Below are positions 1-26,270 of a stretch of DNA of 55,564 nt, in pieces. The stretch covers positions 41,233 through 96,796 of the forward strand of contig PS015277.1 in the NCBI GenBank assembly GCA_048213135.1. The letters run 5' to 3'. This DNA is from Reclinomonas americana ATCC 50394 (lineage: Eukaryota). A program made the translations under genes and the position numbers. Positions within the stretch are counted from its first letter, which is position 1. Every line of letters begins with the position of its first letter. The notes below the pieces were generated by a model. That model did no database searches, was not told the origin of the DNA, and was given only the letters and a program-made list of their open reading frames with translations.

Positions 1-1135
1 AAGGGGAACGTGTGAGCCAGCCAGTCACAACACGCAAAACACTTCACCCCCCACGCAACACTGTGGTTCCACGACCCTCCAGGCAGTCCTTGAGCAGCAA
101 GCCGAGCATGCTGTCCTCGTAGTGAATCTCGCTGGTGGGCCGGCGCTCGGAGATGTCGCGCAGCAGGGCGCGGAGCGTGCCGAGAGACGGGTTCGGGTTC
201 ATGTCGCGCTGTGCGCCCTTGTTCGGCTGTCGATCAATCAGCGAGTGCGCGAGGTCGACGAGCACAAGCTTGCCAGTGACCGACGTCTTGGTCAGCGGCC
301 TGAACGAGTCCACGAACAGCGTGTACACAATGTGTGAGCGGTAGCTCTCGCGACGCAGCACCACCCGGTCAAAGAGATCCTGCACGTGTCGGATTCGTCA
401 GACTCGCGTAACAAACACACACATAAAATGTTACACAAAACGAACCACCAGCGAGTCCTCGCTCTCCACTGTCAGCAGCTTGACATTGCGCAGGAACACA
501 TGCTGGCCGTCTTGCTCGTAAACAATCGATTCTGTCGAGGCGACGACATGCGCGTGAGATTTTCCATCAGAGACGCCGCTCTTGTCATAAAGATGCATGC
601 ACTCACCGTTGGTGAACTCGTCGTCCGAGAGAATGTCGCGGACACGGTTCTCCAGCACCTCGATCACGCTGACGCGCAGGCGCACCTGGCCGCGGTAGCT
701 CAACTCCTGCCGCTTGGCCTCAATCTGTCGATATGCGCGACTGACAATGCCAGGCTCAGGGGCCAGGCCCTTGGCTGTCGGCTCGCGACCATGCAGGGAG
801 AACTCCTTGCAGGCGCTGCCGAGGCCGTAGAACAGCAGGCCAACGGCGTTGCCCTCGAACAGCGAATCCACCATGGGTTCCAGAGGCGCGTACACCTCCT
901 GCAGCAAAAGGTGAGCGACGCGAGGAAAAAAATGTCGAGTAAAGCGAGTGAGACGGCACTCACCGGCTGCGTGTTGAGGTGATCAAACACGTGGTCAAAG
1001 TCGTAGCTGCGCGCGGCGTGCTCCACAAAGGTAATGGAGCGCGCATTGTCCACATCCATGGCGGCGGTCGGGTTCGAGAACCACTCCGAACCGGTAAATG
1101 GTCGCACACGGCAGTACACCTTGACCGTACCCGGA
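1..1135 (-). other. Kinesin-like domain 6 (degenerate, truncated by window edge)
   Basis: VKVYCRVRPF; YDFDHVFD; FYGLGSACKEFSLHG; YRSH; GKLVLVDLAHS; YEDSMLGLLLKDCLEG. Confidence 0.85.
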
Positions 1136-4100
1136 CCGCGCGAGGCCGCTGCACGAGAAACGGGGAAAAGGGAGCGTGAGATATTGACCAGCCAGACTCC
1201 TTTTGATGATGACTGAGACGCAACGAGTATCCGACGCCTGCGAGCACATCCACATGGTGGCGGGGGCCATTGGGCGCGTCGACGATGCCGGTGGTGATAC
1301 CGACTTGTTCGCACGCGCGGACGATCGACCAGCGCTTGATGCGCTGCGCGGACCGGGGCTCACTGTGGAGCGCGACGATGCCGTGGGCTGGCTCGACGCT
1401 GACGGCGGTGCACTGGCTGCCGCAGTCACTGCCGGTGCCTGTGTGTATGTGTGTGATTATTACGTCAGCAGGAGTGCAACAACTCGGCTCTGCACGCACC
1501 CGCCGTGGACTTCTGGTGTGCTTCACGCCCGCAAACTTGAGCGTGTTCAGCGTTTCGTCCACATCGAGTGCCGACGGTGACACGTGCAGGAACAGACTGC
1601 ACCGACAAATGTCAGACTCAACGATGACGACGACATGCAGAACACTTCCGGCGCGTCACACACGCAACATGGTGCGGAACGTCCGGCTAAACACATGCTG
1701 CAACAGCATGGTCAGCTTGTTCTCGCGCCAGCGCGGCACACGGTGGGTCGACGGATCCATCATGTTGCGCAGCAGGTTGCGCAGCGAGTTCAGCGACTGG
1801 TTGACGGCCACAGAATCTGCCTTGACCTGCAGGAGGAGAACGGAATCGACAATTGAGGTGTCGAACAATCGCTGCCACCACCGCACTCGAACAGACACGA
1901 AACCTCGATTTCGGTGCGCGTCTTGAACGCACGCTCGGAGCCAGCCAGATCCGCAAAGAACAGCGAGCCCTGAGCCGGCGGTGAAGACGGATCCGACAGC
2001 GAACGGAGCGTCACCACCACGCGGAAGAGCAGGTGTGAACGATCGGGAGTGCGGCGAGACATGGCCTCCTCCAGGCACATCTGCATCACCGAGATCAGTG
2101 AAACTTTGGGAAACCGAGACACACAACTGCCAGCGCCACTACTCACCATCGCATCCTCAAAGCAATCGACACGCATGTGAACTGCACCACGCACAAAAGC
2201 GCGATTGCGGCTCTTTGACATGTGCACCGTCAACTTGGGTACCAACTCGTCCTCGTTCTCCGGCTCGTACAGCAGATCGGTAATGTCCTCGCCGCACACT
2301 TGCAGAATGCTCCACACCACGTCGGTCACCTCGAGATCGTAATCTGCTCACAAACAGTGAGACGAGAGGAACACAACACCACTTCCATCCAGCAGCACAC
2401 CCACCTTCCAGTTGGCTCGGATCTTCGCTGGCAATCGCCTCACGCTGCGCACGGGTGCGCATGAAAATGCGGTTCAACGACCGTGCCAACAGACCTGTGT
2501 GCATTAGGCATTCAGCAAAAGGCATGCCCACCGAAACCAAGATGCTTGCCACACGTACCAGGATCACGCGGCTCGCCCAACATGGTGTGCGTCTTGCCGG
2601 CGCTCAACTGGCCGTACGAAATGATGCAGCTCTCGTGACCCGACAGGCACCACTCGAGCACATCGTCCACTGAAGCAGCCGCCTCCTGCTCAGCAGCAAC
2701 CATCGGTCAGTCATCGCCGAGAGGTAGCACGTGGAGGTCGACGCAACATCCTGAGTGACATTGTAGTCCAGGGCTCGGTCCACCGAGTAGTACTTGTACT
2801 CTTGCGACTTGACCTCGACACGCACAGTCTTCTCGTCCGGCATGTCGACAGCCGGCGAGTACTCGCCATGCTCCATCTCCAGGCGGTTGAGTGGGCGCAC
2901 ACGGCAGAACACACGCAACGCGCCAGAGCCGAGCAAGCCTGCCATGGATTCCAACCGTGAGAAACAGCGAGAGGCAAAAGCACATTCGACGGATACGCAA
3001 CTGGCTCCTGACACGGCCGAATCGGGGCGCGGAATCGGAGACTCGCGCGGCGTTTGTGTGGCCAGCGTCGGGCGCGCCTTGATGCGGTGGCCGAGAATCG
3101 AGCGGCCAAAGATCATGGTCTGTCGGCTTCCCTCCACGTCACCCTCCGTCGGTGCCACATGCAGGAACACGCTAATGGAACAAATCGCGGTGAGATGCAC
3201 GCCGACAGCAACTGTATCAAAAAAGGCACGCACATGGACTTGGCCGGGGGCTGCAGGCAATCGCGGCACACCATGGCGATCTTGCTCTCGCGCCACGGGG
3301 CACGTCCCTGAATGAGCTTGTGCAGCACATTCTGCAGAGCGGCGAGCGAGGCGTTCGGGTTGACCTCCTCCACGGCGGCCTGCGTCGGCACCAATCCAGT
3401 GGCCAGCTCCACAAAGCACAGCTTGCCCACGGTCTTGGTCTTGGTGCGCGGGTCAAACACCTCCACCCACAACGTCACCAAAATGTGCGCCTTGTACGTG
3501 CTGCGATGTGCCAGCGAGTCCGTCACCACCTCCATCACGTCGTGGTACGTGTCCACCGGCACGACTTCGACATGCTCCAAGTACACCTCGCCCGACGCCA
3601 TCATGCGCACCGACGGCTGACGAGCGGCAGCCAAGCTACGGCGCTTGGCATCGGCGCTCTTCTCGGCCGACGAGCTCGTCACAAAGTCGGGTCTTCGTGG
3701 CCGCGACTTGCGCGGAGCATCGTCCGTTGTCAACACGGCAGAAGTCTTGCGCAGGTGATCCTTGGTCTCCTTGGCCATCAAATCGACCATGGTGTCACCC
3801 TGCTCGCACATCGACAGAATGAGCGCCTCTAATCTTGCAATGGTACAAAAAACACAGTGTCATGTGGCGCGCCACGCACCCGCAGCTCCAAGACAGACGC
3901 TCGAATGGTGATTGTCTCCGTCTCCTCGTCGACCTTGCGCTGGAAGAAGCGATGGCACACCAACCCCAGCATCTCTGGTGGTCACATGCAAACACTGGGC
4001 GTCAGCCAAACGAAAAGCAAACGACTATTAGAATAACAAGTACACACCACTGGAGAAGCTGCTCTCTTCCAACGCCTTGCCACTGTCCATGGAACCGGCG

Positions 4101-7100
4101 CAGAAAATGGCAGCGCCGTAGCCGTTCATGGCATGCGTCGCAAGTTCGTCGACGTGCTTCTCCGCCGACTGTTACGCGCACACAACAACAGTGGTGAGAT
4201 CGAGCACCGTCGCTGCATGCGTTACCCGTGCGTGCAACTTNNNNNNNNNNNNNNNNNNNNNNNNNNNNNNNNNNNNNNNNNNNNNNNNNNNNNNNNNNNN
4301 NNNNNNNNNNNNNNNNNNNNNNNNNNNNNNNNNNNNNNNNNNNNNNNNNNNNNNNNNNNNNNNNNNNNNNNNNNNNNNNNNNNNNNNNNNNNNNNNNNNN
4401 NNNNNNNNNNNNNNNNNNNNNNNNNNNNNNNNNNNNNNNNNNNNNNNNNNNNNNNNNNNNNNNNNNNNNNNNNNNNNNNNNNNNNNNNNNNNNNNNNNNN
4501 NNNNNNNNNNNNNNNNNNNNNNNNNNNNNNNNNNNNNNNNNNNNNNNNNNNNNNNNNNNNNNNNNNNNNNNNNNNNNNNNNNNNNNNNNNNNNNNNNNNN
4601 NNNNNNNNNNNNNNNNNNNNNNNNNNNNNNNNNNNNNNNNNNNNNNNNNNNNNNNNNNNNNNNNNNNNNNNNNNNNNNNNNNNNNNNNNNNNNNNNNNNN
4701 NNNNNNNNNNNNNNNNNNNNNNNNNNNNNNNNNNNNNNNNNNNNNNNNNNNNNNNNNNNNNNNNNNNNNNNNNNNNNNNNNNNNNNNNNNNNNNNNNNNN
4801 NNNNNNNNNNNNNNNNNNNNNNNNNNNNNNNNNNNNNNNNNNNNNNNNNNNNNNNNNNNNNNNNNNNNNNNNNNNNNNNNNNNNNNNNNNNNNNNNNNNN
4901 NNNNNNNNNNNNNNNNNNNNNNNNNNNNNNNNNNNNNNNNNNNNNNNNNNNNNNNNNNNNNNNNNNNNNNNNNNNNNNNNNNNNNNNNNNNNNNNNNNNN
5001 NNNNNNNNNNNNNNNNNNNNNNNNNNNNNNNNNNNNNNNNNNNNNNNNNNNNNNNNNNNNACCGCCATGGAAGACTCAAAATCGTAGGCGCGGTGGAAGC
5101 GGTACTCGTTGCCGTCGGTCAAACGCACAGTGTCCTCGGTTGGGCACGACACCGCCTGCTGCTCCTCCCAGTAGTCTTCGTCGTCGTAGAACGGGCGCAC
5201 CAACACGGCCACAGTGACGTCGCCAGGCTGGCCGGCAGCTGCGCGGCCGTGATTGGTGGGCGCAGAAGAAAACTGTGACTCGGAGGCACCATCGGCTGCG
5301 CGCACAACAACAACAACAATGAGCATTCGACGTTGGTGACACCACGACGACGACGACGAGGGACGCACAATCTGGAGGCGCAGGGCGGGCACCGGCGACA
5401 ATACCAGACGCGCGACGCGACGAGTCCGGCGGTGCCGACTCGGCATTGGCGTCGCGCTGAGGCACCTCCACGACCTGCGTGTGCGCACCAGACGGACGGC
5501 TGCGCTTGCGGCGCTGCTGCAAGATGGAGGCGCGGAAGAAGCCATAACGCAGCGCCTGCGTCGTGGCCGGCAACGCGCCAGCAAACGGACTGATGCACAC
5601 AAACAGCACCGACTTGTAGCGCTTCTGGAACGCCATGTGCAACAGCATGGTCAGCTTGCTCTCGCGCCATTGCACGTGCGGGTGGGTGAGATCTGCCAAA
5701 CACAAAGGCAATGGAGTCGTCAGCAACAGCAGGCGGGGAGTCAGTCTGTCTGCTGGAGAGACAGTGCGCAACTCTGCTGATTGGGAACGCTCTGCACCAG
5801 CTTGCGCTTGTTGTACACACGTCCGACCTCCATCACTTGATCGGGCGACAACGAGAGGCTAGTGAGCACATCCTGCAGCGCCTTGAACGAGTGCGACACC
5901 GGCAGGGCGTCGCGCAGATACTGCGGCTTGTCCGCATGGCCCGTCAGGTCGTCCTCGGTGACTTGCGCGGCCAGGTCGGCGAAAATGAGCTTGCCACGAG
6001 TCGGCACGCGCTGGTCCGGCGCCTGGATGTCGACGTAGAAGATGTAGACCGTGTGGCAGCGGTTGGATGCCGAGACCGAGTTGGCCTCCACCGACTCGAA
6101 CAGGATCTGCACGACNNNNNNNNNNNNNNNNNNNNNNNNNNNNNNNNNNNNNNNNNNNNNNNNNNNNNNNNNNNNNNNNNNNNNNNNNNNNNNNNNNNNN
6201 NNNNNNNNNNNNNNNNNNNNNNNNNNNNNNNNNNNNNNNNNNNNNNNNNNNNNNNNNNNNNNNNNNNNNNNNNNNNNNNNNNNNNNNNNNNNNNNNNNNN
6301 NNNNNNNNNNNNNNNNNNNNNNNNNNNNNNNNNNNNNNNNNNNNNNNNNNNNNNNNNNNNNNNNNNNNNNNNNNNNNNNNNNNNNNNNNNNNNNNNNNNN
6401 NNNNNNNNNNNNNNNNNNNNNNNNNNNNNNNNNNNNNNNNNNNNNNNNNNNNNNNNNNNNNNNNNNNNNNNNNNNNNNNNNNNNNNNNNNNNNNNNNNNN
6501 NNNNNNNNNNNNNNNNNNNNNNNNNNNNNNNNNNNNNNNNNNNNNNNNNNNNNNNNNNNNNNNNNNNNNNNNNNNNNNNNNNNNNNNNNNNNNNNNNNNN
6601 NNNNNNNNNNNNNNNNNNNNNNNNNNNNNNNNNNNNNNNNNNNNNNNNNNNNNNNNNNNNNNNNNNNNNNNNNNNNNNNNNNNNNNNNNNNNNNNNNNNN
6701 NNNNNNNNNNNNNNNNNNNNNNNNNNNNNNNNNNNNNNNNNNNNNNNNNNNNNNNNNNNNNNNNNNNNNNNNNNNNNNNNNNNNNNNNNNNNNNNNNNNN
6801 NNNNNNNNNNNNNNNAACAGTGAGCACGCAGCGAACAGAGCAACATGAAACAGTCGGCAACCCGTCGCAACTCCAGTGGCTTCCATGTTCTCCAGTGGCA
6901 GCACCAACGCATGCTCCACGTACACCTCACCGGCGCGAGTGACGCGCAGTGCGAGGCGCTCCGACGGCGGCACGTCCGTGTCACTGTTCTCAAACGCCGT
7001 GCGCAGCAGGTCCTCAATCTCGTCCGACGGCGTCAAGCGCACCACCGAGGCGCGCACCGACACCACAGTGCCCGACGACTGACGCATCGATTCGGCCTGT

Positions 7101-10100
7101 TCGAACAGCTTGCTCAGCGACAGCGGCAGCACACCTGCCACCAGAACATGTGAGAAACGCAATCCAGCAATGGATGGGAAACGCACTTCATCACTCACCC
7201 CACTCGCTCTCGCCCAGCAACGTGAATGTCTTGCCAGAGCCGGCATCGCCGTAGAACAGCATCGAAGAGTCGTTGCCCTGCAGCGCCCAGTCCACCAGCT
7301 CGACGGCGCTACCAAACACCTCCGACTGCGTGGCCTCAGGGCCATAGGCGTGATCCATCAGGAACGACTTGCCGTTGTTGAGGTAGACAGTGTCCTCGTC
7401 GGCGATGCGCGAGATGCCAACGCGATCGACCACAGTCGGATCATTGTCCTCTTCCTCGTTCAGCGGGCGCACACGAGAAATCACACGAATATCTCCTGGC
7501 GACTCGGCAGCCTCCGACTTGCCAGCCGCAATAAACTGGTACGTCGGCTTGACCGACTCGTACTTCTGTCGCATTGACCACCGACAAAAGTTAGTTCACC
7601 ACAGGGGAAGAGCAGGGTCGAGTGCAAGGGCACGAAACTCGGCCAGCAAGCTCGCGACGAATGTCTGCAAACTGCATCGTCAGCAGGTTGTCCTCCAAGT
7701 CGTGCTCCATTGGTGAAATGTGCGTGTAGAGCAGAATGCGCGAGTTGAACTCCATGCAATCGCGGACGAGGTGCGTCAGCTTGTTCTCGCGGAAGCGCGG
7801 GTACGACTGCGACTTGCCGGCGTCCATGATGCAGCGCATCGTCGATCGCAGGTGCATGAGGGTCTGGTTGGCCACGGTGCTGCCAGAGGTGATGTCGTCG
7901 CGGTAGTGTGCCTGCTCAGGCGTCGGCAAATCCACCAGGGCGACCTTGCCCACCAGCTCGTCACCCGTGCGTCGGTTGGTCGTCTGCACGTAAATAATGA
8001 TCACCAAGCTCGTCAGCAGGCGTGCGACACCGTGCTCCAGCGCGCGGAGGCGACGGGCGACTCCTGGCACGCGCTGCGCGTGGAGAACAAAGAAGAAAAT
8101 AAAGATGTGAGACCATCCATCAGGTGAACCACAAAAATAGTCATGTCGACGCACCCACAGCTCCTCGGCATCCATGCGCTCGGTGACCACATTCTCCAAA
8201 ATCGTCTCGCCATTCGCGGCAGTGCGGATGACCACCTTTTCCTGCACGAGGCATTACTGTGTCAAAGCAGAATAGGAAACACGACGGCCACCGGTGAACC
8301 ACACCTTGGCAGAGCGACGGCCCACCAGATCGGAAATCACATCGCCGTCCACATCGAGTACCGCACACGTCCAGCGAATGTTCTCAATGTCGGGATGATC
8401 GGGGGCGCTGTCGCGAATCTGGCGCGTGAGCTCGCTGATCAAATGACCAAAGAGTCCCTGGTTCGGCTCGTCCGGCGTGCCAAACATCGACGCCAGCTTG
8501 TCGCCAGACTTGGCGCCATACGCAAACACCGACGAGGAACGGCCGTCCAGAGCACCGTCAATCAGGCTCTTGAAGCGCGCACGAATCACGTCGTCGTCGA
8601 CGGTCGGCGGGAAACCCGTGTCCACCTTGAACGTGGATCCGTCAATGAGGTCGACCTGGTGGCCATTGAAGCCCGAGACCACCACCGACTGCACGGCAGA
8701 GGCGAAAGTGAGTGGCGGCGAGAGTAGCACAAAATCTTCTTCTCCCCTACAACTCACCGTCGGTGGCTCCTCGTTCGCCTGACCGCGCTCCTCCTCGGCG
8801 TACTGGCGCACACGGGTAACGACCTTGACGTCACCGAAAACGCGCTCGCCGTCGGCCCCGAAACCGAGCTGGTTCTGCGAGCCCTCACCAGCACCGGCCG
8901 GACCCATTTGCTCGGCCACGCGCGACTTGATCGAGCGCGAGCTCACCGGTCCACTGGCGCCATCGCCACGCTGCTGCTGCTGGCCCTCGTCTCCGTACCA
9001 GCCAAAGTGCAGCGTCTGACGCGTCTTCTCCAGCTCGCTGGCGGTGGGTGCAACCGTCAAAATGACGGCCAACGACGCCGGCTCCGTGAAAAAGTCCTTC
9101 AGGAACATGGTCAGCTTGCTTTCGCGGTAGCGCACCACCGGCTGATCGCCCGCATGCGCCGGCGGCTCAGCCAGTGCGCGGAGCACGTTGCGCGTTGCCG
9201 TCACCGACTGGTTGGTGCGAATGCCCTCGGGACTCAGCTGTGTGGCAATAAAGTGAATATGTGGCGAGCGCTACAGCAACGCGGGGGAAAAGAGGCGACG
9301 CACCACCATGCGTCCGGCGCGATTCGTGCGCACAGCCGGCACCAAATCCACGCACACAATGCGGGTCTCGAACACTGTGGCCTCTGCGATGAAGAGAAAG
9401 CGAATCAGGCGACGAGCGAGAAATCGATTTTCGTGCGACGCATACTCAACTGTCTTCCTCGCCCGGCATCCATGTGGACACGAACACGTTGAACGTCACG
9501 ACCACGTGGGCGACAGATCGCAGTGCCGCCTCGCCGTCGGCGTTGATGAATGACACAAACGTGCGCGCGCCAAACGACTGCTGCAGTGTCTCCTGTTGTC
9601 GACAGATTGAGAACGACAAGGAAGGACAAAAGGAGGGGAGTCAAAGAGAACCAACCTTCAGCACATCGGCATCCTCGCCCGGACGCTCATCGAGGCCCTT
9701 GAAGATCACCGAGTGACCAATGACGCGGACGCTGATTTTGCTGTCCTCGCCGCGCGAAGCCTTGATGAGGTCATTCGCTTCGTCGCCGCACATTTGCGCC
9801 ACCGAGTAGTTGAAGGCCAGTGAGCCGTTCTCTCCCGGCTCACCAAACTCGAACGATGCCGGATCACGCTCCAGCCGGTCACGTTGTGAGCACAGCTTCT
9901 GGCACACCGTCAACAGGAACTCTGCACGTCAAGTAAGCAGACTGCCCGTTATCAAACAGACTGTGCGCGCGCACAGAAACGTACCCTCAAAGACGCGACC
10001 ACGGCCAGACTCCACGTGGCCGTGGAAAATCAGGCATCGGTTGTGTCCGCGCAGAGCATCCACGACGGCTGCACTGGTGATCTCCTCGACCACCTCACGC

Positions 10101-13100
10101 TTGGTGTCCGACGACACAACGCGATCGTAGTCGTAGCGGTGTCCGTCGGGGAGCACCACAGTGTTGCCGTCGACCACCTCGTAGACCTGCATGGGGGGTG
10201 AGTGAGAGTGAGTGTGGAGAATATGTGCTTTTGCGACAGTGAGGGGGAAAGCGCACCGGACGAGCGTTGCCATTGTCTGACTCCTTTTGCGTGAAATTGC
10301 GAGAAATGGTCTGCACCGAGAACGGGCGACGCCACTCCGAGCCATCCTCGAGCTGCACGGGCGTGCGACCACAGAACACATTGATCTCTGGCTCGACAAC
10401 CTCCACTGCTGCTCACGAAAAACTGCGCAGTGAGCGTTTTTCAGCAGCCAGTGAGCGTGTGAAGAGCGCACGCAACGAGCAGAGGGTGCAGGCGGCGGGC
10501 GCTGGACCACAGGCGCTGGAGCCTCGCGCTGCTGCTGCTGCTGCTGTGGAGGCGCAGCTTGTGGAGCCTTCGGCGGTGACGGAGGCTTCTGCTTCGGGCT
10601 CTCAGGCTGCACGTTCCACCAACAGCGTCAGTGTCCACACGGACAACAGTACACACACGCGCACACACGCAAGATCAAACACACCTTTTCAGGGCTGGAC
10701 TCGGGCGTCGGGTACTCTGGCGGTGGGGGCGCTTGCTTCTTCGGCTCCGGCAGCGGAGGCGTGTAACGCAGCTCCTCTTCCGACTCGGCGCCGCCCTCGC
10801 CCTCCTCACCGTACTCGTACACGTAGTAGTCCTCGTCAACGAGCTCTTCCTCCACAGCCGCCGCGCTCTTTTGTACCTTGGGCGATTGGCTGTCACTGTG
10901 GTGCGATCACACCCATCGGTGAGCGCCAACTGGCGAATAGACGAAAAAATCAAGACCAACAAAACCACGCACCGTGGCTGCTCGCGCATCGTAATTGACT
11001 GCGGCTGCGACGACTGCTGCGCGGATCCAGAAGCGGCACTGACCACACCGCTCTTCACCTCGGATGCTGCCGGCTGCGCGCCCTTGTTGTCGGCATTCTT
11101 CACCGACGGCAATCCGGTGCTCCACACCTCATTGGAGTCCACGTCGGTGGTGTCACCATCGGTTTCCTCCTCCTCCTCACCGCCACCCTCCTCGTAGTAC
11201 TCGTAAAAGACCTCCTCGCCACCGACCTCGGTCTGCTGTACCTCTTGTGTCTGGCGTGAAGCGTCCTCCGCAGCACGACGGGNNNNNNNNNNNNNNNNNN
11301 NNCTGCCTGCTCGCGCAAGTCTTGCACACGGCGCGCCTCCTGCGCCTGCCGCTGCTCCTCCTCGCGCTGCTGGCGCTGCTGCTGCTGCAGCTGTTGTTGT
11401 TGCTGCTGTTGCTGCTGTTGGCGCTGCAACTCTTCGCGCTCTGCCGCCTCCTCGTCCTCACTGAACTCTTCCTCCTCCTCGGCACCGCCTTCGCCCTCGT
11501 AGTACACCTCCTCAAAGTACTCTTCCTCCTCCCTACAAGTGCGTGTCAGCACCATCGTTACCTCCACAATGTCCCTGCACTGGCGACGGAAAAAGAACGC
11601 AACATGGCTGGTGCTGCGGCGGCGGCCGCGGCGACGGCGGCGGCTCGTGGCTGAGTGGAAGCGGCAGGGGCGGCGCGTGGTGGCGCCGGCGCATCCTCCT
11701 CTTCATCATCAGTCACCTCCATCACCTCCTCCTCCATCTCCGCCTCGCCATCCTGACCCGCCTCATCCTCATCGTCCGACACCTCCNNNNNNNNNNNNNN
11801 NNNNNNNNNNNNNNNNNNNNNNNNNNNNNNNNNNNNNNNNNNNNNNNNNNNNNNNNNNNNNNNNNNNNNNNNNNNNNNNNNNNNNNNNNNNNNNNNNNNN
11901 NNNNNNNNNNNNNNNNNNNNNNNNNNNNNNNNNNNNNNNNNNNNNNNNNNNNNNNNNNNNNNNNNNNNNNNNNNNNNNNNNNNNNNNNNNNNNNNNNNNN
12001 NNNNNNNNNNNNNNNNNNNNNNNNNNNNNNNNNNNNNNNNNNNNNNNNNNNNNNNNNNNNNNNNNNNNNNNNNNNNNNNNNNNNNNNNNNNNNNNNNNNN
12101 NNNNNNNNNNNNNNNNNNNNNNNNNNNNNNNNNNNNNNNNNNNNNNNNNNNNNNNNNNNNNNNNNNNNNNNNNNNNNNNNNNNNNNNNNNNNNNNNNNNN
12201 NNNNNNNNNNNNNNNNNNNNNNNNNNNNNNNNNNNNNNNNNNNNNNNNNNNNNNNNNNNNNNNNNNNNNNNNNNNNNNNNNNNNNNNNNNNNNNNNNNNN
12301 NNNNNNNNNNNNNNNNNNNNNNNNNNNNNNNNNNNNNNNNNNNNNNNNNNNNNNNNNNNNNNNNNNNNNNNNNNNNNNNNNNNNNNNNNNNNNNNNNNNN
12401 NNNNNNNNNNNNNNNNNNNNNNNNNNNNNNNNNNNNNNNNNNNNNNNNNNNNNNNNNNNNNNNNNNNNNNNNNNNNNNNNNNNNNNNNNNNNNNNNNNNN
12501 NNNNNNNNNNNNNNNNNNNNNNNNNNNNNNNNNNNNNNNNNNNNNNNNNNNNNNNNNNNNNNNNNNNNNNNNNNNNNNNNNNNNNNNNNNNNNNNNNNNN
12601 NNNNNNNNNNNNNNNNNNNNNNNNNNNNNNNNNNNNNNNNNNNNNNNNNNNNNNNNNNNNNNNNNNNNACGTCCACATACTTGGTCGTGGTAATGTACCG
12701 CGTGGTGACTGTGTGGGCGTTTCCCTGCGCATCACGCTCGGTGTGCTCCTGAATATCCTCCGACACCTGCGTCTTGTCGTCCAGGTTGTATTGCTGCGCG
12801 TGCGCACACGGGTGAGCGCAAGAGAGAGGGAGGGGAGGGAGGAGAGATAAGGGGAGGGGGAGGGGGAGAGGGAGAGGGAGAGAGAAAGGGAGAGGGACAG
12901 AGAAGGGTGGGAGGAAGGGTGGGAGGAGTTGCAGAGTGTGTGCAGGAGAGAGAGACACAGAGTGTGTGAGAGTGTGTGCAAGCGTGTATGTATGCAGAAG
13001 AGAGTGTGTGCCCAAGGAGAGAGAAGGAGAATCGCTGTTCCAACGGCACCCACCCTGTGCATTTCGCGATCGCCTGCTGGCGGCAGCTCCTCCTGCACAT

Positions 13101-13870: not shown

Positions 13871-16800
13871 GCTATGCGGGCTCGACTACTTGCACAAGCA
13901 GCATGTGTGCGTTATCAGTCGCTTTCCGTGACTTGGTGGTGTGCCTCGCTTGCTGACACAGACGACCACGTGCAGGGTGCATCGCGATCTGAAGGGCAAG
14001 AACGTGCTGATGGTGAATGGCGCCGATGGGACGGTGATCAAGCTGGCCGACTTTGGCTGCAGCACGCTGCTGTCGACTGGTCGACAGGCTCTGACTGCTG
14101 GTGTCGGCACGCCCGGTTGGACGGCTCCCGAGGTGTTCAAGGGCGTCGGCTACGACACCAAGGTCTGTATGTGTGTGTCTGGCGCATGTAGTGAATGTCG
14201 CGCGCCTCACTCACGCTATCGTGATCAGGTGGACATTTGGAGTCTGGGTGCCACCGTGCTCGAGTTGTTCACCGGGCAGGTGCCGTACTCGGAGCTCACC
14301 AATGTGGTTTGTGGTAATGGTGGATCGCGCTGCACCGTCCATCAACTGTGACACTTACGGCGACGACATTCACAGCCGGCCGTGATTTACAAAATGATGA
14401 CAACGGCAGAGCCGCCACTGATTCCGGCCGACTTGTCGGCGCTGGCCAAGGACTTTCTCTTGCAATGCTTCAGAGCGTTGCGTGCTTGCGCTGTTGTTCC
14501 TCGTCGTCCTTGCTTTGATTTCTCACAACGACGACAACAGAAATCCCGCCGATCGACCCACCGCCGAGGACCTCATGTTGCATCCGTTCATCACCAGTCA
14601 TCCACGCCACGCTGACGCCGGGCCACTGCCACACGCACCGGTTAGGATGCAGAGTGCACGTTTTGTCTGTTGCCCACGATGCACTCATCCCCGTCTCACA
14701 CATCACACAGCCGTCACTAGGCGGATCGGGATCCAGCTCGGGTGAGTCGCCGCCATCGCTCTTGTTTTCCCGCCTATCGCTGACACTCATCTACTTTGTG
14801 TGCTGGTCGGTGCAGGATCAGGCAGCATGCACAGTCTCATGTCGAACAGGAGAGGTGGGTCGCTCCAGTCTCTGCGTCCTCCGTCCCTTCACTCCAATCA
14901 CACCTCTCCGTGCAGTTGAGAGCTCCGACTTGATACACCAGATGCACCGAGTGGCCGCCATTCCCATCAACGTGAGCATCAGCCCCGTGGGTCGATCGCC
15001 CACTGCCTCGTCGTCATCCGCCGGCGATTTTCGAGTTGAGTGTGCTTCTACCGCATCGTCCTCTCCTCCATTCGACTCACGTGCTTCACTGCCCTCTTCT
15101 TGGCGCAGCTGTACACCTTGGTGCGCAAGGCACCGCATGCACCACGCTGGATTTTCCCGTCACACGCTGCCATGGCCGAGTCACTGATCGACAAGTTGGT
15201 GCACGACGGATGCATGCGAGGTGCGTGATCTCCGTCTCCTTCCCACTCTCCCTCTCTGTGTGCTCTGACACTGCAGGTGCACCAGGCGCGACTGGCATTA
15301 TTGTGATTGAGGGACTTGCCGGCTTTGGCAAGAGCACTCTTGCATCATTAATCATCGATCGCATGTGGGAGCGCAAGCTGGTGCGCGGACACGTGCTCTA
15401 CGTGGATCTGTGCGGTCATTTGGAGAGTCAGCAACATCGCACCAGTGCCAGCGCCGTGGAGCAGCTCTTTTTGCAGCTGAGTGCACCACGTGCCGAGTGG
15501 CTGCTGAAGCAGAACACGGAGCCGGCGGTGTTCATGCAGTCGTTTTACGCGGCACTGGCTGTGGAGGCGCCGGAGGAGCGCGCCGTGGTGTTTCTCGACA
15601 ATGTCGGGTCCGCCGAGCAGCTCAAGAGAATCATGCCGCGTGATATTACGCACGCATGTTGCGTGGGCAGAGACATCACTGCTGCCGTCGCTTTGTATGG
15701 CGAATTCTCACTGTGTTCGTGCAGATGGCGGCGCGTGCGGACCACTGTTTCTGGCCACCAGCCGACACTCCATCTCGCCGTCGCTGGCCGCCGACCTGCC
15801 GCGCGACGTGTCGCTGGCCACTGCGCGCACGGAGCAGCTCACCGAGGGAGACTTGACGGCGTTTGTCGAGTTCCACCACCCCGATGCCGACGAGCACGTG
15901 CGCCGCCTCCTCCTCTCCATGAAGTATCCGTTTGCACTCGGCACTGTGTCGAGGTGCTCCCTGTTATGCGTTGTCCTCATTGGCCTGTGTCTCTTTTCAC
16001 TCACGCAAGTATTTCCAGCGCACTGAAACGCGAAGGAGCCTTCTTGTCGTCGTCGGAACTGGAGGCTCTGTGTGCACAATTGAACCGCGAAGCCTTTGAG
16101 GATGTGCTGGACTCGACAGTGCGCCAGCTGACTCAACCACAGCGACGCGCATTGCTGTCGTTGGCTGCGGTGGAGCGACTGCCGGCCGTCAGCATGAGGC
16201 TAATTGTGGTGCTGGCGGCGGAGGTGGTGGATCCGCTGCCCTCAAGTGACGGTGCGGCAATAGCGACCTCACCGCGTTCTCGCGACACCATGGTGGTGAC
16301 GTACCTGCGTGGCTTGCTGGCCGATCACTCGCTTCATGTGGTCGAGCGAAACGGGCATTGCATCGTGGCGTGGTCGTCGAGTTCACCGGAAGACCGTGAT
16401 ACCGACCTGCCGACGTGTGTCACCTTCAACACGCACAACCTGTATCCGGACTACTTCCGCCTGCGGTGGCCTCGAGCGTTGGCACAGGCGCAGGGCACAC
16501 TCATGCGCCTCTTGTCGGCCCTCATCCGCAAGGCGACGTTGCAGGAGAAGGCCCAGGCGCAGTTGATGAGCATGTTTGGCGAGCACGTCAAGGCGCTGTG
16601 GGACTACTTGGCCGACGGCCGCTTCGACAGCGACTTGCCGTTCTGGCTAAAGACAATCGACGCGGTGTGCGAAGCAGCGCGAGTCACGCCAGCGAGATTC
16701 CGCGAGCGAGTTGGCGACGTGCTGCGCGCCATCTCCACGCCTGCAGTCACCAGCGCGATGGAGGCCGACGACAATGTGGCCGCCGCGGTGCACAAGTCGC

Positions 16801-18432
16801 GCAGTCTGCTGTACCATTTGGGCTTGGATGAACGGCAGTCGATGGAGGAGATGGAGGAGAGCTTGCGGCTGCGCATGCGCGCGCATCCCGGTGATTCTGC
16901 ACCGGAGGTGATTCAGGCGCAGCACGACCTCGCCACTGCGTGCCGCCGTTGTCCTGCGCATGTGGAGAAAGCAGTGGCCCTGTTCCGCGCTGTGCACGCT
17001 GCGCGCAGGGCGCAGTTGGGCGAGGTGCGAAAGTTTTCGAGGGTGCCAGGGAGTTTTAGATTAGCTGCACGAGTCACTGACTTTTGTACCAGGATCACTG
17101 CGACACACTCGGCGTGGCTGGTGACCTGGCCGAGGCCCTTCATTTGTCCGGCAACTTCCAGGAGGCCTCCAAGATACTCGTGTCGGTGGTGCAAAAGTGG
17201 CAGGCGTTGCACGGGGCAGCTGATCCACTGACGCTCACGGCACTCAGCCATTTGGCTTCCGTGTTGCGCTCTCAGGGCTTTTTGTCCGAGGCCGCAAAGC
17301 TGTACGAGAGGGTGCGTACTCTGTTCTGAGGAGGGTCCATCTCCTCATTCGCCAGCGTACTGAAAACAAGTGGCAATAGGTTCGTGTGGGACTGGAGACC
17401 GCACTCGGTCCGAATCACAGCGATGTGCTGGCCGCAATCAACAACCTGGCCACGGTGAGTTTGCACCCTGCACGAATGGTGCCGACTTTTGATCGTCCTC
17501 TCACTGTTCTGTGCGTGTGCAGACGTGGCGTGAATTGGGGCGAGTCGCCGAGGCCGTCACACTCCTCACGGACTTGGCCGACACGAAGCGTCGTTTGCTC
17601 GGCGCCGAACACCCGGACACGCTCACTACTTGTTTCGTGTTTGACGCCACGTCCATGATTACTGTATCGTTTCGTCGCTCACCCTGTCCACGCAGTGAAC
17701 AACCTGGCACTGGCCATGGAGGCACAGGAGCCACCGGACTTGGCTGGGGCGGCACGACTGCACGCCATGGTCCTCGAAACCCGCACACGCACACTCAGCA
17801 GCGCCCATCCAGACACGTTGCGTGACGATTGTTGGCGTCGCTGGTGAATGTGTGCCGCTCACGTGTATATATGATCGTCGGCAGTATCGTGTCGGCCAAT
17901 AATCTGGCGGTTCTCTTGCGACGGCAGCATCACCACAGTGAGGCCATTTCGTTGCTTCGGGAGAGTGCCGAACGCGCGCAACACATTCTGGGTCCCGACC
18001 ACCACTTGGCGCTTACGGTGCGCGCCAATCTGGCCTCTGTACTCGACGAGGCTGGATTTGTGGAAGAAGCCGTGGGGATGAACGAGGATGTGTTGGAGCG
18101 TCGGCGACGTGTTCTCGGTCCCCTGCATCCCAATGTTGCGTGCTGCAGGCTGGTGTTGTTTGTCAATGGTACGTGCCAGCAGCACTGACTGTGGTCAGCG
18201 GGTACAGACACTGGTATCCATGGTGAACTTGGCGTTGCTGTATCACGAGCGGCAGCAACGCACGGCCGACGCCATACCGCTCTTGTCGACCGTGCTCGAG
18301 GAGCGCAAGCGCACGCTCGGCGACGACCATCCGCTGACACGGGCCGTGCGCGTGGATCTCGAAAACGTGCGCAGCTCACTACCTGCCGCACCAGCAGCAG
18401 CACCGCCACCACCACCACCACCACCACCATAG
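13871..18432 (+). CDS. Multi-exon Ser/Thr protein kinase - NB-ARC/STAND NTPase - TPR protein (NLR-like); kinase N-lobe not visible, probably in gap 13810-13829
   Basis: Kinase: GLDYLH, HRDLKGKN, IKLADFG, GTPGWTAPE, DIWSLGATVLEL, RPTAEDLMLHPF. NTPase: IIVIEGLAGFGKSTLA (Walker A, about 15312-15335), VVFLDNV (Walker B), FLATSR. About 9 repeats of the LGxxHPDTLxxxNNLA type at 16880-18370, then poly-Pro and TAG at 18430-18432. Confidence 0.85.
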
Positions 18433-18551: not shown

Positions 18552-19686
18552 TTAGCGGCGATAGCGGTGCTTCTTGAAGTTGAAGTACAGCTGCAGCACA
18601 CCGCGATCGAACGTGCATCGGTAGCCGCGGCGCGAGCTGTGCTCCCACTCCTTGTTGGCGATCTTGAACGCAATATCCTCGTACGGCGGGCCGGCTGAGA
18701 AGCGAATGGTGCACTCGTCGGGGTGATCGCCCGGCAGCAGCTGGAACACCGGCGTCTTGGTCTTGTCGATCAGATCCGGGTAGAAGATGTTGAACTGCGC
18801 AGCACAACGCGTGTCAGCACACATTACACGCTCCTTCCACACACAGTGGGTGAATCGACGCACCTTGTAGCCTGACACGGTCTTTGGCGGTGGGTTGTCG
18901 TGATCGTAATGCGTCTGGTTGTACTTGTTCCAGTCGAAGGCCGTGTGAATGCGGTTGAAGTAGCGCGGCTTGCGTGGTCGGAACTTGTCGAACATTGAGT
19001 ACCGCTGTTGATCGAGAGGGACTTCCTCCGAGAAAATCGCCTCGTCGTCCTCCATTGGACGCTGCGCCTCCACCGCATACAGCTCGTCGTCGGTCTGTGT
19101 GGAGAAGAGGCGGTGAGACATGGGGGCAATCNNNNNNNNNNNNNNNNNNNNGGGAGAGGGAGGGGGAGGGGAGGGGGAGGGGAGAGGGGGGAGAGAACAA
19201 ACATCAGGGAGTGACGACAAAGAAAGCAACGGCGAGACGAAGCGCATCGAACAGAAGAGAGAGGCACAACGTGCAGAGTGAATGTGTGTGCAAAAGCCGT
19301 GAGAATGGAAGAAAAGGGGAAAGAAACAAAGTAAGAAGTGACAAGAAAGCAACAGCAGAGGTGCGAAAGTGACATAAGAGAGAGAGAGAGAGAGAGAGCA
19401 ACGACGTGGGAGACACAATGTATGCGTGTGCATGAGAGAGAACGAGAGATCAACCACTCACCTGCTCCTCCGAGACAGAATCCGGGTCGAGTCCCTTGTC
19501 GCGCAACACCTCCTCGCGCTTCTTCCACTTGAACTGCGTGCGCAGGGAGCTGTCGGCCCACGGGTTGGAGTCGTCGGTGAAGCCGCCAAAGAGCGCGAGC
19601 TCATCGACGCGCTCCTTCTCCTTGCGTCGCAGCTTGCCGTCCTTGCGCTTCTGTCGCTCTTCGGGGGTCTCGCGAATGCGCTGCAG
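18552..19686 (-). CDS. CACTIN: Cactin (spliceosome-associated protein); partial, middle and 5' end lost in gaps
   Basis: C-terminal domain RPRKPRYFNRIHTAFDWNKYNQTHYDHDNPPPKTVSGYK|FNIFYPDLID...FSAGPPYEDIAFKI...LYFNFKKHRYRR*. Upstream exon 19461-19686 reads ETPEERQKRK...GFTDDSNPWADSSL...FKWKK. Confidence 0.95.
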
Positions 19687-20136
19687 TCTGTGAGTGGAGG
19701 GGGTGAGAAGCAGGAAAAGAGAGGAGAGGGTGGAAATGGGGAAGAGGTGAGCAAGGAAGGTGGGTGGGGATGGACACAGGAAGCGTGCAGTGCATCAAGA
19801 GCAGGAGAGGGTGACGACAAAAGAGAAAGTTGAAGCAAAAGGAGAAGCGAGACAGAAAGAGAGAGGAACGCGGACAAGGGCACAACGAAGGAGATCGACA
19901 GGGAGAGGCGACTGAGTAAGAGAAATCAGGAAGGGCAGAGACGTGACGAAGAGTGTGTGAGACGCAAAAGAACGAAGAAGAAAGAGAACAGGAGAGAGGA
20001 GAGAGGGAGATGGAGGGGAGACAGCGGGAGGGAGAGGAAGAGAACTGAGGGAAGAGAAGAGAGAAAAAGAACAGCAGACAGACAGAGAGAGAGAGATGGG
20101 AAAGAGAGCGGGAAAGACGAAGGAGAGACAGAGAAC

Positions 20137-20138
<2 letters not shown>

Positions 20139-20232
<94 letters not shown>
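20139..20232. repeat. (GA)n microsatellite at the end of a purine-rich low-complexity tract (19690-20244)
   Basis: Perfect GA dinucleotide run just before an assembly gap. Confidence 0.97.
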
Positions 20233-23458: not shown

Positions 23459-26270
23459 ATGGTTTGTTGCAAATGAAAGACTCATGACACTCAGCACACA
23501 GAGAGCACTCACTCGCGCTCACAGGCGGACACTCTTCGTCTTGTGCGACGCGCGTCGTCCTCAGGTCTGCTCTCTCTCAGTCCAGTCTCTCTCTCTGTCT
23601 CTGACNNNNNNNNNNNNNNNNNNNNNNNNNNNNNNNNNNNNNNNNNNNNNNNNNNNNNNNNNNNNNNNNNNNNNNNNNNNNNNNNNNNNNNNNNNNNNNN
23701 NNNNNNNNNNNNNNNNNNNNNNNNNNNNNNNNNNNNNNNNNNNNNNNNNNNNNNNNNNNNNNNNNNNNNNNNNNNNNNNNNNNNNNNNNNNNNNNNNNNN
23801 NNNNNNNNNNNNNNNNNNNNNNNNNNNNNNNNNNNNNNNNNNNNNNNNNNNNNNNNNNNNNNNNNNNNNNNNNNNNNNNNNNNNNNNNNNNNNNNNNNNN
23901 NNNNNNNNNNNNNNNNNNNNNNNNNNNNNNNNNNNNNNNNNNNNNNNNNNNNNNNNNNNNNNNNNNNNNNNNNNNNNNNNNNNNNNNNNNNNNNNNNNNN
24001 NNNNNNNNNNNNNNNNNNNNNNNNNNNNNNNNNNNNNNNNNNNNNNNNNNNNNNNNNNNNNNNNNNNNNNNNNNNNNNNNNNNNNNNNNNNNNNNNNNNN
24101 NNNNNNNNNNNNNNNNNNNNNNNNNNNNNNNNNNNNNNNNNNNNNNNNNNNNNNNNNNNNNNNNNNNNNNNNNNNNNNNNNNNNNNNNNNNNNNNNNNNN
24201 NNNNNNNNNNNNNNNNNNNNNNNNNNNNNNNNNNNNNNNNNNNNNNNNNNNNNNNNNNNNNNNNNNNNNNNNNNNNNNNNNNNNNNNNNNNNNNNNNNNN
24301 NNNNNNNNNNNNNNNNNNNNNNNNNNNNNNNNNNNNNNNNNNNNNNNNNNNNNNNNNNNNNNNNNNNNNNNNNNNNNNNNNNNNNNNNNNNNNNNNNNNN
24401 NNNNNNNNNNNNNNNNNNNNNNNNNNNNNNNNNNNNNNNNNNNNNNNNNNNNNNNNNNNNNNNNNNNNNNNNNNNNNNNNNNNNNNNNNNNNNNNNNNNN
24501 NNNNNNNNNNNNNNNNNNNNNNNNNNNNNNNNNNNNNNNNNNNNNNNNNNNNNNNNNNNNNNNNNNNNNNNACACGCACACATACACACACACGCACACA
24601 CACAGCGAGAGAGAGAGAGAGAGGGCGACTACTTACTCAACGACGCACCAGCAGCAAGACTGCTCTCATGGCACCTCGATCCTTCCTTCTTTGCCACTCT
24701 TCCTGTCATCCTCCCTTCTCCTCATTCTTCCTCTCTTCTGTTCACTTCTCCACATCAATTCTCTGTCCTCGTTTCTCCTCGCTTATCGCTTTTCCTCACT
24801 TCTCTTCTCCTCACCCGTCTTCTCTTCTTCCTCCATTCTCCTCGTTTCCTTGCTTTTCCTCTATTCTGGTCTCTCCCCATCACTTCTCCTCTCTTCTCCT
24901 CGCTCGTCACTCCTCTCTTCTCTTCTCCACACTTCTTCTCCCTTCTCCTCTCTTCTGTTCACTCCTCCTCTCTTCTGTTCTTGTCCTCGTTTCTCCTCAC
25001 ATCTCCTTGCTTCTCCTTACTTCTCTTCTTCCTCCCTTTTCCTCATTTCCTTGCTTCTCCTCTCCTTACTCCTCCTCTCTTCTGTTCACCTCCACAGCTC
25101 GTCTCTTCTCCTCGTTTCTCCTCGTCTCCCCACGTCTCCTTGCTTCTCGTTACCTATCTTCTTCCTCCCTTCCTCATTTCCTTGCTTATCCTCTATTCTC
25201 CTCTCTCAGCACTCCTCCTCTCTTCTCCTTGTTTCGTTGCATCTCCTCTGTTCACATCACTTCCCATCACTTATTCTTCGCTTTCCTCTCCTCTCCTCCC
25301 TTATTCACCTCTTCTCCTCTCTTCTCATTTCCTTCTCCTCCCTCCTCTTTTCCCCTCCTCTCCCCTCCTCTCTCTCTCTCTCCCACTTCTCACTTCCCCT
25401 CTATTCCACAGGAACTCTGCGAATTCCTCTACCAAGATCGACAACGCGTGCAGCGCGACCTCGCCGAGGTGCGACAGTCGAGCGCGGAGCTGGAGCAGCA
25501 GTGGCGCGAGGCCAGTTCCACTGCCCGCGTGGCCGAGCAAGCAGCTTCGTTCTTCTCCTCCTCTGGCCCACTTCTCACCGCGTTTTTTCGCTGACTGCTG
25601 TAATCTTGCATGCAGGTCAAGGAGCAGGTGGCGGCGCTGGGCTTTGCCGGTGGCGGCCAACTGCAGGAGGACACCACTCTCAACGACTTGCGTGGCAGCA
25701 TTCGTGAGATCGAGCGCGAGATTCAGGCCTTTGATCCAGCCTACGCGCGCGAGGTAGGCAACAATCCAGAATTCCGGGCGTTCGCGTTCGCGGTGGAGGG
25801 GACGCTCATCGTGGTGGGCACATGCAGGTTCTCGTGGAGGCCATGCCGGCAAGTGCACGGCATGCGGCCGGTGGCAGCAGCAACAGTGAGTACAGCCAGT
25901 TGGTGGCACGCAAGTTCCGCCGCCTGGAGCAATTCGTGTTGTGCTTGAAGAAGCGCATTCAGCGACTCGAATCGATGGAGGCTGGACTGGGTGAGCATGC
26001 TCTTCCACATCTCCGGCATTGCGTGTGTGTCTCTGCTTGGCTCAAAATGCGACGGTGGTGGTGGTGGTGCTGCAGGCGAGGTGGCTGCCAAGTTCGGCTC
26101 CGTGTCCAAGCTGGTGGACGAGAACAAGCGTCTCAGCAAGGAGAATGTGAAACTGCGCGAGCGTGAAGTCCGCTACGCACCGTCGCCACTCCTCCGCCGA
26201 CGCGATCTCAGCAACGTGTCGCACTCGTTCTTGTGTTCCCTGGTCAAGGCGCTGCAGAATGAGCTCAGGT
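23459..26270 (+). CDS. Coiled-coil protein, 5' fragment (unknown function)
   Basis: ATG|gtttgt at 23459, then exons ADTLRLVRRASSS, ELCEFLYQDRQRVQRDLAEVRQ, LNDLRGSIREIEREIQ, KLVDENKRLSKENVKLRERE with heptad character; runs into a gap. Confidence 0.55.
24680..25410. repeat. Pyrimidine-rich (CT/CTT) low-complexity intronic tract
   Basis: About 730 nt strongly dominated by C/T on the + strand, ending at the acceptor ccacag|GAA. Confidence 0.9.

Follow-up and report, generated by a model that had tools for sequence, protein, structure and literature searches.

In the textbook view, a kinesin has one motor head per chain and works as a dimer or tetramer. The motor-homology domains of Vik1/Cik1, together with Costal2/Kif7, KIF26A/B, VAB-8 and NOD, have a broken nucleotide site and act on or beside microtubules without normal motility; to our knowledge, the 'dead' kinesins are all single heads. 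Cos2 and VAB-8 are named as atypical kinesins in PMC2867816, and Kar3Vik1 is mentioned in PMC3544905. Here we describe a locus of Reclinomonas americana ATCC 50394 (contig PS015277.1, forward-strand positions 41,233 to 96,796; this whole stretch of 55,564 nt is the window below), in which a predicted gene on the minus strand encodes at least six tandem kinesin-like heads behind an acidic N-terminal region. The six heads have a common origin and open reading frames, and five of them lack the complete catalytic motif set. We give about even weight to the reading that this is one gene under selection, whose six-head product would be a multivalent, largely ATP-independent microtubule binder.

Six kinesin-like heads in one predicted spliced gene

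The window is a GC-rich (about 0.6) stretch of eukaryotic scaffold with 15 runs of N. The kinesin array contains no long open reading frame (ORF) because many short introns cut the gene, and the kinesin motif strings are spread over all three minus-strand frames for the same reason. On the minus strand, introns of the form GT...CAG can be read that are about 63 nt long and contain branch sites resembling CTSAC. The gene model was built in three steps. A dynamic-programming exon/intron model combined codon log-odds trained on Pfam-positive fragments with weight matrices for the splice sites, a prior on intron length and a bonus for branch sites. Two changes that raised the kinesin-profile score were then added by hand, an 81-nt intron in the second head (D2; the heads are numbered D1 to D6) and a shifted intron after DLAGSE in D5. 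Finally, a profile-guided scan proposed four boundary changes, one of which was adopted (+11 bits); the three others, which gained only 2-3 bits and had poorer acceptors, were dropped.

The predicted gene extends from position 11786 to position 1, where it runs off the window, and its spliced form comprises 2,292 codons in three N-free blocks (992, 296 and 1,004 codons). There is no in-frame stop in these codons, and the other two frames contain 54 and 43. The 29 predicted GT-AG introns measure 61-81 nt; 28 end in CAG, in 23 a CTNAY motif precedes the 3' end by 10-45 nt, and retention would break the frame or bring in a stop for 23. Four more exons upstream (11786-10685) supply the acidic, Gln- and Pro-rich N-terminal part. 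A start codon was not found in the sequence read and was placed behind the N gap 11787-12668. A preliminary description had located the array at 1..10060; the motifs are indeed there, but the gene lies on the minus strand, reaches upstream to at least 11786 and leaves the window at position 1.

We built our own kinesin profile from 29 reference motor domains and aligned the spliced heads to it. The product contains six ordered, near full-length domains, which scored 66-195 bits over columns ~2-330 (Table 1). Pfam PF00225, with a curated cut-off of 29.3 bits, was above that cut-off in 9 of 20 minus-strand fragments (33.7-79.5 bits), covering all six heads; of the remaining fragments, 4 matched Kinesin or Microtub_bd more weakly and 7 had no match. 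No kinesin-like fragment was detected in the window beyond 10.7 kb. For D2, all 30 matches returned from the ESM Atlas were kinesins. D4 is the most degenerate head and carries an insert of about 50 residues, and D6 ends with the window after about profile column 303. The heads are joined by linkers of 26-71 residues, 46-62% of which are P, G, S, A or Q. The D1-D2 linker lies inside one exon, and the reading frame therefore continues from D1 into D2 with no splice between them; the stop-free stretch 9270-8257 spans the D1 YRESKLT to the D2 P-loop.

Two large N gaps interrupt the array, 6116-6815 in D3 and 4241-5060 in D4. They sit at intron positions conserved in other heads (columns 183 and 63, respectively), and almost no coding sequence has been lost. 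The stated gap sizes (700 and 820, respectively) come close to the surplus distance between the motifs on either side, and the real gaps are therefore probably short, or else conceal unusually long or repetitive introns.

Table 1. Coordinates of the kinesin-array gene features in the window. Motif coordinates are plus-strand coordinates of the first codon base; bits and columns refer to our own kinesin profile unless another source is named.
Feature	Position	Strand	Matches	Motifs and remarks
N-terminal acidic, Gln- and Pro-rich region	10477..11786	-		exons 11786-11604, 11532-11303, 11282-10973, 10895-10685, 10606-10477; frames join via GT-AG introns, no stop
Head D1	8968..10403	-	95.0 bits, columns 10-326; Pfam Kinesin on C-terminal part	beta1 INVFCGRTP; P-loop GHVESGRG 10021; switch II DLVPAV 9348; L12/alpha5 YRESKLT 9129; catalytic motifs degenerate
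D1-D2 linker	8836..8967	-		about 55 residues, 60% P, G, S, A or Q; within single exon 9237-8758
Head D2	7639..8835	-	117.5 bits, columns 2-332; Pfam 52.7 bits; PDB kinesin matches	RVRQ; P-loop GAKSGDKL 8517; switch II DLPTPE 7932; L12/alpha5 FRENKLT 7794; catalytic motifs degenerate
Head D3	5493..7496	-	85.4 + 40.0 bits (125 summed)	RVRP; Walker A GDAGSGKT 7250; switch I SNRCH; switch II DLAAQV 5977; L12/alpha5 WRESKLT 5669; interrupted by N gap 6116-6815
Head D4	3054..5224	-	2.2 + 20.6 + 42.8 bits (66 summed); Pfam 33.7 bits	LVRP; P-loop GSMDSGKA 4096; switch II ELATGL 3409; L12/alpha5 WRESKIA 3295; N gap 4241-5060
Head D5	1511..2924	-	195.1 bits, columns 3-327; least diverged head	GALRVFCRVRP 2906; Walker A GQLSAGKT 2613; switch I PDRSH 2047; switch II DLAGSE 1951; L12/alpha5 WRENKLT 1730
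Head D6	59..1131	-	124.6 bits, columns 2-303; Pfam 43.2 and 47.0 bits	GTVKVYCRVRP 1113; P-loop GLGSACKE 826; switch I SYRSH; switch II DLAHSL 256; L12/alpha5 YEDSMLG 121

Nucleotide pocket and microtubule face of the heads

The 18 strings that had been assigned to the P-loop, switch II and loop 12/alpha5 (L12/alpha5) of D1-D6 each occur once, all on the minus strand and in homologous kinesin columns (P-loop 88-95, switch II 236-241, L12/alpha5 284-290); PDRSH of D5 likewise occurs once on this strand. At the RxRP column, D3, D5 and D6 have RVRP, D4 has LVRP and D2 has RVRQ, and CGRTP of D1 falls outside the aligned part. The CRVRP start ascribed earlier to the heads is literal in D5 and D6 but reads SRVRP in D3. 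Walker A (GxxxxGK[ST]) is canonical only in D3 and D5; D1, D2, D4 and D6 deviate from it. No head has the switch I sequence SSRSH, to which SYRSH of D6, SNRCH of D3 and PDRSH of D5 are nearest, and the switch I region is shortened in D3-D6. The switch II sequence DLAGSE is present only in D5 (7/7 columns), the other heads keeping only D/E-L (2-4 of 7 columns). Some pocket residues are kept more widely: the first P-loop Gly in all six heads, the P-loop Lys in five, the switch II Asp and Leu in five and six, and the switch I His in five.

By alignment of the motif columns, five heads thus lack the complete catalytic set, as had been proposed, and GxxxxGKT, DLAGSE and RxRP come together only in D5, which also keeps the Arg of switch I, the partner of the switch II Glu. 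D3 retains Walker A but is without the switch II Gly and Glu, and D1, D2, D4 and D6 appear unable to form a normal P-loop/switch pocket. In D5, the alpha3-switch I region is 9 residues shorter than the consensus and SS is replaced by PD, so that both serines are gone; in the alignment with a solved KIF19 chain, TAANQTSSRSH stands opposite AMSRRTPDRSH. Which residues are missing depends on the alignment, whereas the replacement of SS by PD does not. The shortened switch I region and this replacement make normal ATP turnover by D5 doubtful. The earlier suggestion that only this head is potentially active stands as far as its motif combination goes but is doubtful for normal turnover, and the canonical Walker A is shared with D3.

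According to PMC4358365, alpha4, loop 12, alpha5 and loop 8 are the nucleotide-independent microtubule contacts; the nucleotide site is made up of the P-loop, switch I (loop 9) and switch II (loop 11); microtubule attachment is sensed by loop 11; and the no-nucleotide state of kinesin binds microtubules more strongly. Among the six heads, the best-conserved 12-column windows lie at columns 281-296 (L12/alpha5; 0.64-0.68), followed by alpha4 (0.60-0.62) and beta7/switch II (0.60). We then compared column classes in the five degenerate heads at columns at least 90% conserved in 128 references; as the heads are paralogues, the cells of this comparison lack independence. Residues were identical to the consensus in 49/100 cells of the nucleotide pocket, 36/60 of alpha4, L12 and alpha5, and 48/82 of the rest of the fold; when conservative changes were included, these counts rose to 53/100, 48/60 and 57/82, respectively. 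With conservative changes, the pocket was kept less than alpha4-alpha5 (p=0.0007) and less than the rest (p=0.03). These counts indicate that the pocket is relaxed and that conservation of the microtubule face roughly equals that of the fold core without surpassing it. Thus, the earlier claim that the ATPase motifs were lost and the microtubule motif kept agrees with the rank of the L12/alpha5 window and with the conservative-change comparison, but not with the comparison by identity or the state of loop 11 given below.

Several observations weigh against microtubule binding by the heads. By identity, alpha4-alpha5 is kept no better than the pocket (p=0.19), nor does its conservation exceed that of the fold core (p=0.18 to 1.0; p=0.18 with conservative changes). 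Loop 11 is essentially lost (4/30 at a 60% threshold). Columns 261 (K of INKSL) and 291 (R of LTRLL), reportedly the kinesin-1 tubulin contacts K252 and R284 (Woehlke et al. 1997), are basic in none of the six heads. The net charge of the heads is -4 to -17, compared with a reference median of +3, and the charge of L11-alpha5 is -1 to +1 in D2, D3, D4 and D6 (reference median +5). Most of this would suit a kinesin fold re-used for a role away from microtubules, as a protein scaffold or for another partner, in which the RESKLT stretch is kept only as fold core; the retained L12/alpha5 heptapeptide may indeed be simply fold core, and the earlier view that selection kept lattice binding is accordingly a hypothesis. 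We consider this alternative credible but unlikely. Columns 285 and 288, the Arg and Lys of R-E-S-K (presumably kinesin-1 R278 and K281), are both present in five of six heads each. The alpha4 N-x-S-L..L pattern is kept in 4-5 of six, L12/alpha5 is the single best-conserved window, and the L11-alpha5 charge is in the canonical range in D5 (+5) and D1 (+3), though only there.

The favoured reading, that of a largely ATP-independent microtubule binder, can be put as follows. One intron-containing motor unit, probably with kinesin-14 affinity, was duplicated internally, its copies diverging to 18-28% identity and their nucleotide pockets decaying to differing degrees. Heads unable to hold or hydrolyse ATP would behave as nucleotide-free ('rigor-like') kinesin heads and, given that nucleotide-free heads bind microtubules strongly, could serve as static binders if their tubulin face works. 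With flexible linkers of 26-71 residues, several heads could attach together to adjacent tubulin dimers or to adjacent microtubules, giving high avidity or cross-linking and making the protein a cross-linker or multivalent lattice binder. Sensitivity to nucleotide would be confined to D5 and possibly D3. Both microtubule binding and any nucleotide binding by the heads are here inferred from sequence.

D5 could instead be a working, perhaps slow motor to which the dead heads act as tethers in cis, as a single-chain version of Kar3-Vik1. That it alone combines Walker A and RxRP with DLAGSE and the Arg of switch I would fit such a motor, as would its standing as the least diverged head (195 bits) and the position of the heads on the kinesin-14 side of the tree described below. 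Against it stand the 9-residue deficit and the SS to PD change in switch I, a loop 11 that matches the consensus at only 1 of 6 columns, and the Pro/Gly-rich segments before the heads, in which no coiled-coil neck is apparent, although no coiled-coil predictor was run. We regard a working D5 motor as clearly unlikely.

Continuity of the gene, coding integrity and origin

Two further points weaken the case for a single six-head chain: three of the five inter-head joints (D2-D3, D4-D5 and D5-D6) rest on predicted introns, and the D5-D6 linker exons (1438-1305 and 1237-1225) are uncertain. The array might therefore be not one polypeptide but adjacent kinesin-like genes, or alternative isoforms, joined through false introns. 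This alternative draws on the weakly supported D5-D6 linker exons and on the D2-D3 intron, retention of which leads to a stop at 7594 with an in-frame ATG about 20 nt further on. However, D1 and D2 are joined within one exon, the D3-D4 linker lies mostly in one exon, and all joints use 61-81 nt introns with the same donor types. A 20-nt intergenic spacer would also be odd, and the D2-D3 intron has an ACTAAC branch-like site. Separate genes are thus improbable, slightly more so than a D5 motor, and we infer that the array is expressed as one polypeptide chain.

The N-terminal region of this chain had no Pfam match. It contains three Glu-rich aromatic repeats, EEEEYFEEVYYEGEGGAEEEEEF, GGEEVFYEYYEEGGGEEEEE and VDEDYYVYEYGEEGEGGAESEEE (10685-11786, minus strand), as well as a poly-Gln tract and Pro-rich stretches. 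The repeats look like the acidic tails at the C-terminus of tubulin (EGEGEEEGEEY-like), and by this analogy they might mask the heads or mimic tubulin tails. A more specific version of the lattice-binder reading, to which we assign a low probability, would be a single-chain 'rigor chain' whose six or more kinesin-14-derived heads occupy successive dimers of a protofilament (about 48 nm at 8 nm spacing) and act as a staple or ruler for a stable array; D5 would be nucleotide-gated, and the tubulin-tail-like region would be a decoy that masks the heads until recruitment.

The coding capacity of the array is preserved throughout. In the spliced gene, GC content at codon positions 1/2/3 is 0.644/0.439/0.792. 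At the third position (GC3) it is 0.77-0.86 in each of the six heads, regardless of motif state, and 0.79 in the neighbouring conserved cactin ORF. Pairwise identity between the heads is only 18.5-28.2%, and the duplications are therefore old. Since open frames, splice sites and codon bias have been kept in all copies after such old duplications, the capacity of all six heads to code for protein appears to be under purifying selection. A decaying tandem pseudogene array, a possibility raised in the preliminary description, or an assembly artefact could be argued from the degenerate catalytic motifs, the N gaps inside D3 and D4 and the failure to find an orthologue, but is very improbable given the absence of stops in 2,292 codons despite 18-28% identity, the uniformly high GC3 and the intact splice sites on the one hand, and, on the other, heads too unlike each other for a collapsed or duplicated assembly and gaps that lie at conserved intron positions and remove almost no coding sequence.

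To place the heads, a tree was inferred in IQ-TREE under LG+C20+F+G4 by posterior mean site frequencies (PMSF) from 336 columns and 52 rows, namely the six heads and 46 references thinned at 47% identity from 128 motor domains. The six heads formed one clade, with support of 99/98 by ultrafast bootstrap (UFBoot) and the Shimodaira-Hasegawa-like approximate likelihood-ratio test (SH-aLRT). Several intron positions and phases are common to heads: D5 and D6 share a phase 0 intron at column 63; D1, D3, D4 and D5 one of phase 1 at columns 104-107; D1, D2, D5 and D6 one of phase 0 at column 183; D1 and D5 one of phase 0 at column 252; and D4 and D5 one of phase 2 at column 304. The single clade and the shared introns show that the heads arose by internal duplication of an intron-bearing unit, and the shared positions also make the predicted introns more credible.

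The heads and nine references (P0118, P0042, P0060 and six more) form a 15-row set that splits from the 37 other motors at 100/99. In eight of these nine references the motor is at or near the C-terminus, and in P0060 it is mid-chain. The kinesin-14 label of this side rests on the best PDB matches of only two references: P0148 matched KCBP best (308 bits, vs 216 for kinesin-1), and P0042 matched KIFC3, Ncd and KCBP (167-138 bits, vs 119 for KIF22). D5 stays on the kinesin-14 side without the other heads (SH-aLRT 97). In pairwise comparison, the N-terminal exon of D3 matched KIFC3 best (51.4 bits, vs 46.4 for Klp61F), with GDAGSGKT opposite GQTGAGKT, and the C-terminal exon of D2 was non-discriminating (KIF2C 35.5 and KIFC3 34.6 bits).

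This placement is to be read with reserve on several counts. The head branches are long (1.2-3.0 substitutions per site), which leaves their exact placement unsure; placement within the kinesin-14 side is weakly supported (43/76 and 40/84); and the 128 reference motor domains are an unlabelled, biased sample of matches to D1/D2. The kinesin-14-like ancestor proposed in the preliminary description, for which a per-domain phylogeny had been suggested, is thus favoured by the deep split and by D5 alone, but not by D3, which does not go to the kinesin-14 side when placed alone. Overall, the position of the heads suggests that the duplicated motor unit was of kinesin-14 affinity.

Genomic surroundings and relation to known systems

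Elsewhere in the window we found ORF fragments with a protein kinase domain (13932-14348, plus strand), TPR_10/TPR_12 (17826-18429, plus strand), the C-terminal domain of cactin (18555-19130, minus strand; 179 bits) and a REJ domain (36007-36675, minus strand). Because the best 120 of 5,642 matches to the cactin ORF are only 52-59% identical, the lineage seems to be without a close annotated relative in the collections searched. Four tandem repeats occur at 46958-48598, 55145-55564, 19992-20232 and 24801-25381. They comprise, respectively, a 354-bp unit in 4.6 copies (77% matches), a 183-bp unit present in 2.3 copies where the window ends, some 240 bp of (GA)n and an array of CT-rich 10-mers. 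The region of the CT-rich array has strong negative GC and AT skew, and all three plus-strand frames are open there for 340-394 codons.

An exhaustive HMMER search of the 338-residue D1C-D2N segment against 1.84 billion representatives gave 1,131 matches at E<=0.001, three of them at <=1e-10. It returned no orthologue, a further point against the favoured reading, and the best true kinesin was a generic match of 71.9 bits. The top match, P0001 (4813 aa, 103 bits, 21 stretches), was considered as a many-headed relative and rejected, as it is a bacterial protein with PKD/laminin-G repeats whose match covers a short stretch rich in Val, Gly and Asp (query residues 183-235). This case illustrates that many-stretch matches can be compositional. 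Word-indexed protein searches gave nothing at E<=0.001 among 7,999 candidates for D1C-D2N and 572 for the D5 segment, which is weak evidence.

A full-text literature search in a limited paper collection gave no description of a natural kinesin with tandem motor domains, and the accessible parts of PMC1434745 and PMC2867816 contain no wording for a multiple-motor kinesin. Among 149 kinesin matches, however, 121 proteins had a full-length motor, and seven of these (P0003, P0005, P0007, P0041, P0107, P0110 and P0130) had two full motor domains. P0110 is encoded by one ORF of a dinoflagellate transcript; P0107 is a gene model from Paulinella. P0041, P0110 and P0130 make up a consistent family in which an N-terminal motor is accompanied by a divergent motor at the C-terminus. 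Natural two-motor kinesins may thus be an under-described class. They differ from the present array in having two heads rather than six and in that these heads are canonical (Pfam 484-676 bits over two domains); none groups with the six heads, and some may be gene-model fusions. Dead single heads and predicted two-motor kinesins are already known, and a chain of several heads would appear to be the part for which we found no description.

If the array is as predicted, six selected and diverged heads, ranging from the near-complete D5 via D3 (Walker A only) to fully degenerate ones, would constitute a natural experiment on the kinesin fold after ATP use stops and would represent a new way to build multivalent microtubule binding. 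The weight of this case is limited by its being one scaffold and a predicted gene model with no orthologue found.

With respect to the kinesin-14 motors (Ncd, Kar3, KIFC1/KIFC3 and KCBP), the heads lie on the same side of the strongest deep split, and their start, G-x-[IVL]-[RKT]-V...R-V-R-P, appears to resemble the neck-motor junction of kinesin-14. The Asn of the kinesin-14 'GN' junction, however, is absent here, and whereas kinesin-14 has a single C-terminal motor behind a coiled coil, the present chain has six motor-like domains with mostly broken motifs. The dynein heavy chain also carries six nucleotide-binding-fold modules per polypeptide, only some of which are catalytic. This likeness is an analogy only, as dynein is an AAA+ ring of another fold without homology and the heads here are arranged as beads on a string. 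The non-catalytic kinesins, Vik1/Cik1, Costal2/Kif7, KIF26A/B, VAB-8 and NOD, have one head per chain and work as a dimer or with a partner; in contrast, five such heads and one near-complete head are here predicted to be fused in cis.

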